Of a DNA stretch of 64,000 bases, positions 1-12,000 are shown piece after piece (the stretch's first letter is position 1; every line of letters begins with the position of its first letter). Made by a program: the position numbers. The DNA comes from Escherichia coli (GTDB lineage Bacteria > Pseudomonadota > Gammaproteobacteria > Enterobacterales > Enterobacteriaceae). Location of the stretch: NCBI RefSeq assembly GCF_050920415.1, contig NZ_CP169309.1; one strand, 5' to 3'.

Positions 1-3000
1 AAGGTGGTGAAATCCAGCGCCGCGAAAGTCGAGCCACTGCCGCTGGTCGGTGAAGGCAGCGACAACTACGCGGGCGATGAAATGGTCACTAAAGTAGTGC
101 CGGTACGCAATGTTTCGGTACGAGAGCTGGCGCCGATCCTGCGCCAGATGATCGATAGCGCTGGCTCAGGCAACGTTGTTAATTACGATCCCTCCAACGT
201 GATTATGCTCACCGGGCGCGCCTCCGTCGTGGAACGGCTGACAGAAGTGATCCAGCGCGTGGATCATGCGGGAAACCGCACCGAAGAGGTGATCCCGCTG
301 GATAACGCCTCGGCCTCGGAAATTGCCCGCGTGCTGGAAAGCCTGACCAAAAACAGCGGCGAGAACCAGCCTGCGACGCTGAAATCTCAAATTGTCGCCG
401 ACGAACGCACCAACAGCGTGATTGTCAGTGGTGACCCTGCCACGCGAGACAAAATGCGCCGCCTGATCCGTCGGCTGGACTCAGAAATGGAGCGCAGCGG
501 CAACAGCCAGGTGTTCTATCTCAAATACAGCAAAGCCGAAGATCTGGTCGATGTGTTGAAACAGGTCAGCGGCACGCTCACAGCGGCTAAAGAAGAGGCG
601 GAAGGCACGGTTGGTAGCGGGCGTGAGGTTGTCTCCATCGCCGCCAGCAAACACAGTAATGCCCTGATTGTCACCGCGCCGCAGGACATCATGCAGTCGC
701 TGCAAAGCGTGATTGAACAACTGGATATTCGCCGTGCTCAGGTGCATGTCGAGGCGTTGATCGTGGAAGTTGCCGAAGGCAGCAATATCAACTTCGGCGT
801 GCAGTGGGCGTCGAAAGATGCCGGATTAATGCAGTTTGCTAACGGTACGCAGATCCCTATCGGTACGCTGGGCGCAGCCATTTCTCAGGCGAAACCGCAG
901 AAAGGTTCAACGGTGATCAGCGAAAACGGTGCCACCACCATTAACCCGGATACTAACGGCGATCTCTCCACGCTCGCCCAGCTTCTTTCTGGCTTTAGCG
1001 GTACGGCGGTTGGCGTGGTGAAAGGCGACTGGATGGCGCTGGTACAGGCGGTTAAAAACGACTCCAGCTCGAACGTTCTCTCCACGCCGAGCATCACTAC
1101 GCTGGACAACCAGGAAGCCTTCTTCATGGTGGGTCAGGATGTTCCGGTATTAACCGGCTCTACCGTTGGCTCCAATAACAGCAATCCTTTCAATACAGTA
1201 GAAAGGAAAAAAGTCGGCATCATGCTGAAAGTCACGCCGCAGATTAACGAAGGAAACGCGGTACAGATGGTGATTGAGCAGGAAGTGTCGAAGGTGGAAG
1301 GACAGACCAGCCTCGACGTCGTGTTTGGCGAGCGCAAACTGAAAACCACCGTGCTGGCAAACGATGGTGAGCTGATCGTGCTTGGCGGTCTGATGGACGA
1401 TCAGGCGGGAGAAAGCGTGGCGAAAGTGCCGCTGCTTGGCGATATCCCATTGATTGGTAACCTGTTTAAATCGACGGCGGATAAAAAAGAAAAACGTAAT
1501 CTGATGGTGTTTATCCGCCCGACCATTCTGCGTGATGGTATGGCGGCAGACGGCGTGTCGCAGCGCAAATATAACTATATGCGCGCCGAACAGATCTATC
1601 GCGATGAGCAGGGCTTAAGCCTGATGCCGCACACCGCGCAGCCGGTACTGCCAGCGCAAAATCAGGCTCTACCGCCGGAAGTTCGTGCGTTCCTTAATGC
1701 CGGGAGAACGCGTTAATGGTGCCTGTAGCACAGGAAACCACCGCTAACACCGTGCGTCTGCCCTACAGTTTCAGCCGTCGGTTTAGTCTGGTGGCATGGT
1801 GCGAAGCGTCGCTGGAGATCCTCCATGTGCATCCGTTGTCGCTCTCTGTTTTGCAGGAGCTGCAACGGGGGCTGAACGCGCCCTTTACGCTGCGGCAAAT
1901 CGACGAAGCCGAATTTGAACAGCGGCTGAATGCGGTCTGGCAGCGGGACTCTTCCGAAGCTCGCCAGCTGATGGAAGATCTCGGTTCCGCCGAGGACTTT
2001 TTTACCCTCGCTGAAGAACTGCCGGAAACGGAAGATCTGCTGGAAAGTGACGACGATGCGCCAATCATCAAACTGATCAACGCCATGTTGGCAGAGGCGA
2101 TTAAAGAAGGCGCTTCGGATATCCACATCGAGACATTTGAAAAGAGTCTGGTGATCCGTTTTCGTGTTGACGGCACATTACATGAAATGCTGCGCCCGGG
2201 GCGCAAACTGGCCTCGCTGCTGGTATCACGTATTAAGGTGATGGCGCGGCTGGATATCGCCGAAAAGCGCGTACCGCAGGATGGCCGTATTGCGCTGCTG
2301 CTGGGTGGTCGGGCGATTGACGTGCGTGTCTCCACTATGCCTTCCGCCTGGGGCGAGCGCGTGGTGCTGCGACTGCTGGACAAAAACCAGGCCCGCCTGA
2401 CGCTGGAGCGTCTGGGTTTAAGTCAGCAACTGACCGCGCAGCTGCGCCAGTTACTGCACAAACCGCACGGCATCTTTCTGGTGACGGGGCCGACAGGTTC
2501 CGGCAAAAGCACCACGCTGTACGCCGGATTGCAGGAGCTGAACAACCACTCGCGCAACATTCTCACGGTTGAAGACCCCATCGAATACATGATTGAAGGG
2601 ATCGGTCAGACACAGGTTAACACCCGCGTCGGCATGACCTTCGCCCGTGGCCTGCGCGCGATTTTGCGTCAGGACCCGGATGTGGTGATGGTCGGTGAAA
2701 TCCGCGATACCGAAACCGCAGAAATCGCCGTCCAGGCGTCATTGACCGGACACCTGGTTCTTTCCACGCTGCATACCAACACGGCGGTGGGGGCGATCAC
2801 GCGTTTGCAGGATATGGGCGTTGAGCCTTTCCTGCTCTCTTCCAGCCTGACGGGCGTGATGGCGCAGCGACTTGTTCGCACACTGTGCACCGACTGCCGC
2901 CAGCCCGCGCCTGCCACTGATGAAGAAAAACGCCTGCTGGGAATTACCGACGTGCGTACCGTCACGCTGTACCATCCGCAGGGCTGCCCCGCCTGTAATC

Positions 3001-9000: not shown

Positions 9001-12000
9001 ATGATCTGCTGAACTGGTTAAACGCGCTGGATGAAAAGTATGCGCTGCGGGTGACACAAATTGATGTCAGCGCAGGTGAGAAGCCGGGGATGGTGAACGT
9101 GCAGCGACTGGAATTTGGACGGGGTAAAGTATCAGGAGATTAATATCAATAAAATTACTCTCGTTAACGTGGCGAGAGTAATCCCCCCAGACCTTATAAG
9201 CTAAGTTTTTTCGTGAAGGTTATTGCCAGATCCAAAAGCAAAAACCCGCCTTGTGGGCGGGTTCTTAAGAATAGTGGTGCCCGGACTCGGAATCGAACCA
9301 AGGACACGGGGATTTTCAATCCCCTGCTCTACCGACTGAGCTATCCGGGCAACGGGGCGCATTAAACCTGATTCGCCTCGTCTCGTCAATCAAATTTCTT
9401 CAATTTAGTGCAGACTGCACAATCTATCATCACTTTGCCGCTATTGCACGCATTGTCAGGCAAACCAGGCGGTCCAGGCTGCGGAAAGCGGCATTGCCAG
9501 AAGGAGTGCTGGAAGCATGTTGACCACCGGGAACATTTTAATGCCACAGATGCGTAAGCCGGTTGCCAGCAGCAATAAACCGCCCACGGCGCTGAAGTCT
9601 GCCATCATCGACGGTGTGGTCAGCGGTAATATCAGTGCGGCAGCCCACGCCAGCGTTAACTGGATGATCAGTAATGGAATGCTAATCACCGATACCGCGA
9701 TGCCCAGTGAGCAGGCGAAGATCATTGCCGTAAAAAAATCAAGAAATGACTTGGCGATTAAAATACTCGGATCGCCGGTCATACCTTCGTTCATCGCACC
9801 GAAGATCCCGGTGCCGCTGGCGCAAAACAGGACAATAATCGCGACAAAATTCTGAATAAAAGATTCATGCGCTGGCTTCTTACGCGAGTGGCGAAACAGA
9901 TTTTGCGCTTTGGCGACCGCGGTATTGACACCTTTTTCCAGCAGACAAATTTCGCCAATTAGAGCGCCAAGTAGCGTAGCTAAAACCATCGCTGGAAGGT
10001 TGGCGCATTTCACCACCAGTAAAATACCAATCCCCAGCGATGCCAGACCAAAAATTGATGTCATGGAGACGCGGATACGTTCCGGTAAACGTTGGCTGAG
10101 CAGTGCGCCGATAACGCCACCCAGTAAGACTGCACTCGCGTTGATAAAAGGGCCGATGACCACAAGAGTTCCTGTTAACTGTATTGTTTGATTTTCTTAT
10201 TATGAACGTTTGGCTCCTTCGATGGCTTGTTTGTTCGCAAAGTCCTGGCTTGCGCGCTTTAGCGAAAGGTGCCATGATTGCGCGAATTTTCTCCTCTCTG
10301 TACGGAGTTTGCCCGATGCACGCCACCTCCTTACATTCTCTTGCTTATCGCCGTTTCGCGCGAAACTCCTCCCTTTTTCTGCTCATGCGGTGAAGTTAAC
10401 GCACGCTCACTGCAGGACAACAGTAAAATCAGAGCGTTTCTGCTTTTACTGATGTCTGGCGGTCGGAGCTGGTGACCAGTTTGACCCATATCTCGTGGGG
10501 CAGGGTTTTTCACCTTGTCCGGTATTCTTACTTCCCCGAAACGGGTTTTGCGCTTATGAAATCAATGAGTATTGCCGCCAGTGGTGAACTGGTTTCCCGA
10601 ATTTCCACCCATCGCTGCGTGGTGGCGCTGGAACATACTGATTTTACGGACGTCGCGGCAGTCGTCATTACCGCTGCGGATAGTCGCAGTGGCATTCTTG
10701 CGTTGCTTAAGCGCACCGGTTTTCATCTACCGGTGTTTTTGTATTCCGAACATGTTGTTGAATTACCTGCGGGCGTTATGGCGGTAATCAACGGCAACGA
10801 GCAGCAGTGGCTGGAGCTGGAATCCGCAGCCTGTCAGTATGAAGAGAATTTGCTGCCACCGTTTTATGACACGCTGACGCAGTACGTTGAGATGGGCAAC
10901 AGTACCTTTGCTTGCCCTGGGCATCAACATGGTGCGTTCTTTAAAAAGCATCCTGCCGGACGCCATTTTTACGATTTCTTTGGCGAGAACGTCTTTCGTG
11001 CCGATATGTGTAACGCCGACGTGAAACTGGGCGATTTGCTTATTCATGAAGGTTCGGCGAAGGATGCACAGAAATTCGCAGCCAAAGTCTTTCATGCCGA
11101 TAAAACCTATTTTGTGCTTAACGGCACATCGGCAGCAAATAAGGTTGTGACGAATGCGCTGTTAACGCGTGGTGATCTGGTGCTCTTCGACCGTAACAAC
11201 CATAAGTCGAATCATCACGGCGCGCTGATTCAGGCGGGGGCGACGCCGGTCTATCTGGAAGCTTCACGTAACCCGTTTGGTTTCATTGGCGGTATTGATG
11301 CGCACTGTTTTAATGAAGAGTATCTGCGCCAGCAAATTCGCGACGTTGCGCCAGAAAAAGCAGACCTGCCACGTCCGTTTCGCCTGGCGATTATTCAGCT
11401 GGGAACCTATGACGGCACTGTCTATAACGCCCGTCAGGTGATCGATACCGTTGGGCATCTGTGTGATTACATTCTGTTTGATTCCGCGTGGGTCGGTTAC
11501 GAACAGTTTATCCCGATGATGGCAGATAGCTCGCCGCTGCTGTTAGAGCTTAACGAAAACGATCCGGGGATCTTTGTGACGCAGTCGGTGCATAAACAGC
11601 AGGCGGGCTTCTCGCAGACATCGCAGATCCATAAAAAAGATAACCATATTCGCGGGCAGGCGCGTTTTTGCCCGCATAAGCGGTTAAATAATGCCTTTAT
11701 GCTCCATGCTTCTACCAGCCCGTTCTATCCGTTGTTTGCCGCGCTGGACGTTAACGCCAAAATTCATGAAGGGGAGAGTGGGCGTCGGCTGTGGGCGGAG
11801 TGCGTTGCGTTGGGGATTGAAGCGCGCAAGGCGATTCTTGCGCACTGTAAGCTGTTCCGCCCGTTTATCCCGCCCGTTGTTGATGGCAAATTGTGGCAGG
11901 ATTATCCGACATCAGTGTTAGCCAGCGACCGTCGTTTTTTCAGTTTTGAGCCGGGGGCGAAGTGGCACGGCTTTGAAGGATATGCCGCGGAGCAGTATTT

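Follow-up and report, generated by a model that had tools for sequence, protein, structure and literature searches.

The 'beta' type II secretion system (T2SS) of Escherichia coli generally secretes SslE and, in enterotoxigenic E. coli (ETEC), the heat-labile toxin. SslE is secreted by this system, with a requirement for PppA, in E. coli W and in enteropathogenic E. coli (EPEC) (PMC3707838), and is a proposed vaccine candidate (PMC4014459). YghG, or AspS, is the pilotin of a Vibrio-type secretin, and this pilotin and the SslE substrate are regarded as members of the Vibrio-type unit (PMC3542185); the internal deletion of the cluster in K-12 has likewise been published (PMC3707838). Here we describe a stretch of 64,000 nucleotides from E. 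coli contig NZ_CP169309.1 (hereafter the window), the first 9143 nucleotides of which very probably hold, to judge from their sequence, the ten genes at the distal end of the E. coli yghJ(sslE)-pppA-yghG(gspS-beta)-gspCDEFGHIJKLM unit, that is, of the 'beta' or Vibrio-type T2SS.

Positions 1-9143 consist of ten consecutive plus-strand open reading frames without internal stops, from gspD, entered at codon 116, through gspM (yghD), as stated by a first-pass annotation made from the sequence alone, which had called the genes in frame and intact apart from the cut at the window edge. All ten products score above the curated NCBIfam thresholds of the Gsp equivalogs to which they are assigned, at E-values (3e-25 to 2e-212) well outside anything that chance would give. 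The secretin gene gspD-beta is represented by its 3' 571 codons (1-1716, in frame 1; the first base of the window opens codon 116 of 686; TIGR02517, 468 bits, cut-off 351), and is followed by the genes for the cytoplasmic assembly ATPase GspE (1716-3209; TIGR02533, 706 bits against 630) and the polytopic inner-membrane platform protein GspF (3209-4432; TIGR02120, 489 bits against 424, over the full profile length). The major pseudopilin GspG (4449-4904; TIGR01710, 191 bits against 89) has a 13-residue leader, MNSLSRTQEPRAG, ahead of FTLLE. Four minor pseudopilins are encoded after it, namely GspH (4908-5471; GTG start, MPKRG/FTLLE, the slash marking the cleavage site; TIGR01708, 183 bits against 80), GspI (5468-5839; MKRG/FTLLE; TIGR01707, 88.5 bits against 44), GspJ (5836-6441; MRRTRAG/FTLLE; TIGR01711, 174 bits against 65) and GspK, which is also the tip subunit (6438-7415; ending its leader in PPKRG before MALVV; NF037980, 281 bits against 130, and 630 bits to chain K of PDB 3ci0, which we take to be the ETEC GspK-I-J complex). 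The last two genes encode GspL, the bitopic platform protein that docks GspE (7412-8590, of which K-12 yghE corresponds to 7626-8590 only; TIGR01709, 180 bits against 65), and the 183-residue GspM (8592-9143; NF007274, 402 bits against 352).

Short motifs agree with these assignments. GspE has the features of the assembly ATPase, with a Walker A motif (GPTGSGKS at residue 258), VVMVGE at 323, a His box (GHLVLSTLH at 345) and two CxxC motifs (CTDC at 391 and CPAC at 424), as expected of a tetracysteine Zn site. The prepilin cleavage motif is G/FTLLE in GspG, H, I and J and G/M in GspK, which does not have Glu at +5; absence of this Glu is usual for GspK. The window itself thus supplies a secretin, an ATPase, the platform proteins F, L and M, and one major and four minor pseudopilins.

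Assignment to the beta clade comes from comparison with solved structures and with the other E. coli system. The GspD portion is identical at 570 of 571 residues to chain A of PDB 5zdh (residues 76-646), presumably the ETEC GspD-beta with its pilotin, and scores 1213 bits to it, compared with 638 bits to 5wq8 and 466 bits to 5wq7, which we take to be the V. cholerae and the K-12 alpha secretin, respectively. Beyond enterobacterial relatives, GspG is closest to Vibrio EpsG (73-80% identity, against 62% to K-12 alpha GspG), and identities between the beta proteins and those of the K-12 alpha system range from 21 to 62%. Together, the structure matches of GspD and GspK, the Vibrio-like GspG and the low identity to alpha identify the cluster as the 'beta', Vibrio-type T2SS of Dunstan et al. 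(PMC3542185). No sequence feature speaking against this identity was encountered in the analysis. The locus, from glcA and sslE to pheV, the occurrence of an AspS/YghG pilotin and SslE in the same unit, and the affinity to Vibrio Eps are all as expected of T2SS-beta, the pilotin, SslE and the glcA-sslE end being read from the near-identical genome described below.

The genes are tightly packed. Six of the nine junctions are overlaps, of 1 nt at D/E and E/F (TAATG) and of 4 nt at H/I, I/J, J/K and K/L (ATGA or GTGA), while F/G, G/H and L/M are separated by gaps of 16, 3 and 1 nt; the first-pass annotation was right about the packing and slightly generous in placing overlaps at nearly every junction. 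A GGAG-like motif lies 7-13 nt 5' of most gsp starts, within the preceding gene. The overlaps and tight packing fit co-transcription with coupled translation, and we infer translational coupling from this layout, although the gspJ/gspK overlap is not strictly kept, being a 2-nt gap in strain 4114. The only meaningful repeat in the cluster is the coding motif for the pseudopilin N-terminus (43 nt, four copies). A search of 1-9350 for hidden RNA genes with Rfam at gathering thresholds returned a tRNA alone, and counts of internal promoters and terminators in the cluster were no different from those in shuffled sequence, the pheV terminator excepted. Compensated frameshifts in gspH and gspD, considered because of two BLAST gaps, were rejected, as nucleotide alignment resolved them into a cluster of substitutions affecting two codons without a frameshift.

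The region upstream of the window could be read from E. coli MFDS1022581 (NZ_CP169399.1), which matches the 64-kb window at 99.99% identity, with 1 mismatch up to 21.4 kb and, over the other 43 kb, 5 mismatches and 2 gaps. This strain comes from animal-source food in Korea, and the next closest relative for the gsp cluster is N96, from a Tibetan pig. In NZ_CP169399.1 the gene order is glcB, glcA, sslE (1519 aa), pppA (269 aa), gspS2/yghG (136 aa, with an LSGC lipobox-like motif), gspC (317 aa) and gspD (686 aa, 2061 nt), followed by the genes of the window, and the RefSeq annotation places no pseudogene flag on gspD through yghD or on the upstream genes. GspC and the prepilin peptidase, both outside the window, are thus supplied by this 99.99%-identical genome alone. 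The first-pass prediction that gspC, a prepilin peptidase gene and a gene for a large secreted lipoprotein would lie upstream is borne out by intact gspC, pppA and sslE; the pilotin gene gspS-beta and the 5' part of gspD are intact as well, so that the upstream sequence neither lacks gspC and the peptidase nor frameshifts gspD. The same annotation had spoken of a complete second T2SS. Completeness holds by way of this genome, but 'second' does not apply to it, as the K-12 gspA-O and chiA genes are missing from its interval between tuf/bfd/bfr and rpsJ, where a 155-residue prepilin-peptidase-like gene (453375-453842), 40% identical to GspO, stands alone. Of the two canonical chromosomal sites for a T2SS, this genome therefore has a system at the beta site only.

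The gene content suggests how the system would work, following steps that are established T2SS knowledge. Substrates, of which the chief one is the lipoprotein mucinase SslE, encoded a short way upstream, would pass the inner membrane by way of Sec and take up their fold in the periplasm. PppA would process the five pseudopilins (GspG, H, I, J and K) behind the conserved Gly. Docked on the GspL/M/F/C inner-membrane platform, the GspE ATPase would drive assembly of a short GspG pseudopilus capped by GspK-I-J, which would push the folded substrate out through a 15-mer GspD secretin brought to the outer membrane by the pilotin GspS-beta/AspS.

At least 80% of the 9.4-kb query is present in 3256 of 5426 complete E. 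coli genomes (~60%), and at least the tRNA in all but one. The particular version in the window is rare, with full-cluster identity reaching at least 99% in 2 and at least 96.7% in 7 of these genomes and no more than 95.3% in the rest. For the housekeeping DNA from nupG to ansB (12700-20700), identity is ~98% to nearly all of the 5426 genomes, and no more than 21 records reach 99%. This indicates that the host belongs to a rare lineage, about equally far from each of the common phylogroups. Identity to strain 4114 is mosaic along the first 28 kb of the window, at 92-96.5% in gsp-speC (1-12000) and yggM-yggS (21000-26000) and 97.4-98.4% in nupG-ansB, a pattern that recombination blocks around the pheV hotspot may account for. 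A recent foreign import was considered as the source of the cluster's divergence and is not established, since the neighbouring gene speC has a dS of 0.17 and a second divergent block appears at 21-26 kb in a 28-kb profile. The simplest reading of the gsp divergence combines a rare host lineage with faster synonymous change in weakly expressed genes. Across the ten gsp genes, dN/dS relative to strain 4114 lies between 0.007 and 0.165 at dS values of 0.13-0.29, with similar values relative to a B2 strain, which indicates long-term purifying selection rather than decay.

Several observations nevertheless weigh against a working T2SS-beta in this strain. The promoter region, gspC, pilotin, peptidase and substrate lie outside the window and are read from a proxy (6 mismatches and 2 gaps per 64 kb), and expression and actual secretion in the window strain are things that we infer from sequence. 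Secretion by the described systems depends on conditions: E. coli W secretes in rich medium at 37 °C, and in H10407 up-regulation at host temperature has been reported (PMC3707838), so that the system may be silent under many conditions. Three lineage-specific differences in the proteins may add to this: GspM has 183 residues instead of 178, with an extra C-terminal KVSGD; position 9 of the GspG leader is Glu, where the listed E. coli-like relatives with MNSLS-type leaders have Lys; and the proxy GspC is short by 2 residues in its Pro-rich linker relative to three other strains.

The first set of these points raises the possibility that the cluster is intact yet effectively cryptic, silenced in ordinary conditions like K-12 alpha and contributing little in the strain. 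Its GC content of 56.3%, against 51.3% in the remaining window, would fit a horizontally acquired unit, and a simple scan found sigma-70-like sites to be no commoner than in shuffled sequence (3 found, 5.4 expected). The MG1655 annotation labels its own alpha gsp genes 'cryptic', and the dependence of secretion on rich medium and temperature would agree with silence elsewhere. The operon promoter is, however, located upstream of the window, which makes the absence of promoters within it uninformative. Selection on the proteins is also hard to reconcile with permanent silence, both because dN/dS of 0.007-0.17 over a dS of ~0.2 would be unexpected for such a cluster and because GspD has kept its near-identity to 5zdh despite ~4.5% nucleotide divergence of gspD from other E. 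coli lineages. We therefore consider a cryptic cluster rather unlikely, and a T2SS-beta maintained by selection for its proteins the better account of these genes.

The GspG leader had been singled out in the first-pass annotation as unusually long. It comprises 12 residues ahead of the Gly, or 13 counting Gly(-1), and the start that defines it, ATG at 4449, is preceded by ACGGAG 8 nt upstream, has no other in-frame start between it and the Gly, and agrees with RefSeq. A TTG at 4422, which would give a 22-residue leader, was rejected as a start: it overlaps the end of gspF, has no motif resembling a Shine-Dalgarno sequence, and homologues across genera start at the Met equivalent to the ATG. 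The leader is indeed longer than those of Vibrio EpsG (9-11 residues) and K-12 GspG-alpha (9), but the same 13-residue length occurs in 58 of the 116 top motif-bearing GspG homologues, all of them close Escherichia-, Edwardsiella- and Plesiomonas-like relatives. Its length is the standard one, a trait of the enterobacterial beta clade and of moderate size, not a peculiarity of the strain. In the databases, many GspG-beta entries from E. coli have 163-166 or 186-220 aa, compared with 151 aa here, and match ~83-93% of the query at ~98% identity. This suggests that other strains have variants with a frameshift or read-through at the C-terminus.

The specificity of PppA versus GspO for the beta pseudopilins was left open in the E. 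coli W study (PMC3707838). One improbable suggestion is that the 13-residue GspG-beta leader, against 9 residues in alpha, could set the dependence on PppA over GspO, in which case Lys9Glu and the five added GspM residues could be natural variants that alter processing or assembly; separately and just as speculatively, the gsp-speC divergence could reflect recombinational import beside the pheV hotspot.

The change at the end of gspM is due to a G-run at 9121-9124, which reads GGGG here and GGGGG in K-12 and strain 4114, moving the stop codon. This loss of one G, the Glu at position 9 of the GspG leader and the shortened proxy GspC would together be the grounds for supposing that the cluster looks intact and is non-functional, which we find very unlikely. 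GspM is unaltered through residue 178, with the tail of 5 residues as its sole gain, and the 552-nt, 183-aa form recurs in 2020CK-00188, whose cluster is 97.6% identical, so that the form has persisted. The GspG leader is cleaved off, and among homologues its sequence varies widely while its length is constant; the GspC deletion keeps the reading frame and affects a Pro-rich linker that is variable. A type IV pilus or a competence pseudopilus as the product of these genes can be dismissed, since the matches of GspD, E, F and G to PilQ, PilB, PilC and ComG models are weaker ones expected from shared ancestry and, like those to type III models, fall far under the curated cut-offs that the Gsp equivalogs exceed, GspH, I, J, K, L and M are specific to T2SS, and the secretin hardly differs from one of a T2SS whose structure has been solved.

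The cluster abuts pheV, as the first-pass annotation had it, with the tRNA-Phe(GAA) gene lying 131 nt past the gspM stop. Directly beyond that stop lies a perfect 10-bp inverted repeat on the plus strand, ATTACTCTCG and CGAGAGTAAT with a 9-nt loop and no T-run (9154-9182), which was read from the sequence, is invariant in K-12 and strain 4114, and may be an operon-end hairpin. The intrinsic terminator of pheV (9239-9267, minus strand), found by a terminator scan, has a 12-pair stem followed by a T-run, and pheV itself (9275-9350, minus strand; ARAGORN, and 68 bits to Rfam RF00005) has its 3' end facing gspM. The pheV site is empty in the window, with no island inserted. In one bovine strain a CP4-like island (cbtA/yeeU, radC, antirestriction) begins after a 23-nt remnant of the pheV 3' end, and in a B2 K1 strain the kps/neu capsule cluster lies directly 3' of yghD.

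Elsewhere in the window, a gene for a predicted 243-aa lipoprotein with an LLAGC lipobox (35715-36446, plus strand) lies between speA and speB; it matches no NCBIfam family and was found in 3550 of the 5426 complete E. coli genomes and was absent from the others. A degenerate copy of IS621, of the RNA-guided IS110 family, is situated 3' of tkt (~40811-42131, minus strand), where the annotation marks a frameshift; alignment with an intact IS621 from another site in strain 4114 gives 96.8% identity and 8 gap openings, and in the degenerate copy only the N-terminal 215 codons are in frame. Adjoining this remnant, between tkt and cmtB, is a gene for a 302-aa SPFH/prohibitin-family protein with weak HflC/HflK matches (42168-43076, minus strand), which is not known to be part of the K-12 gene order. 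Inverted 126-nt copies, 99.2% identical, occupy the pgk-fbaA and argP-rpiA intergenic regions (51386-51511 and 63328-63453), a length that presumably fits ERIC/IRU intergenic repeats. Two matches to the Rfam ES036 (CssrF) sRNA family, at 40777-40820 (plus strand, 3' of tkt) and 52703-52745 (minus strand, by position 3' of fbaA), score 39 and 47 bits against a gathering threshold of 37.6 and may be REP-like hairpins rather than genes.

The T2SS-beta cluster, its neighbourhood, the K-12 remnant and the mechanism are published, and near-identical DNA is annotated in RefSeq; the system is already known. As an E. coli accessory system it is familiar from textbooks, its structures have been solved and its genetics published, and the present locus adds little to it. 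The smaller outcomes are that the statements and predictions of the first-pass annotation proved essentially right, that the ends of the K-12 deletion can be placed in window coordinates, and that a rare lineage has kept beta while alpha is missing, the latter by proxy.

Among known systems, K-12 T2SS-alpha (gspA-O, with chiA adjacent) shares the machine type, the C-M gene order and a near-equal mature N-terminus of GspG, but differs by the low protein identities given above, by its bfr-rpsJ locus and by a Klebsiella-type secretin that works with PulS/OutS-type pilotins (PMC3542185). Vibrio cholerae Eps is the closest system outside the enterobacterial relatives, as seen in its GspG and in the 5wq8 secretin, and it shares an AspS-type pilotin and an AcfD/SslE-type substrate with E. 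coli beta (PMC3542185); it differs in genomic context and in the EpsG leader, which has 9 residues against 13 in the window.

The K-12 MG1655 remnant occupies the orthologous locus with equal flanks (glcA on one side and pheV, yqgA and speC on the other), in the order yghJ, pppA, yghG, yghF, yghE, yghD, pheV, yqgA, speC. The first-pass statement that K-12 keeps remnants here was correct as to a deletion remnant but too narrow in naming yghD and yghE only, because yghJ(sslE), pppA, yghG and yghF(gspC) are retained too. When the full cluster is aligned to K-12, a single gap of ~7,996 bp runs from the gspC stop codon to about codon 71 of gspL, removing gspD-K; in window coordinates it extends from ~-370 to 7625, homology resumes at 7626, and 7626-9143 is matched by yghD together with the 3' portion of yghE. 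The junction reads GCGCTA/CCGACTATT and lies at a short TA(A)CCG match, an imperfect one, between the two parental sequences.

The nearest counterparts are the T2SS-beta clusters of ETEC H10407, EPEC E2348/69 and E. coli W, which have the genes, their order and their place on the chromosome, between glcA and pheV, in common with the window cluster. Positions 9127-9176 of the window match gspKO-dn, a primer used for the deletion in E. coli W (PMC3707838), with one mismatch. From most E. coli beta copies, the window cluster differs by ~5% nucleotide divergence, by a GspM that is 5 residues longer and by a GspG leader with E9 in place of K9.

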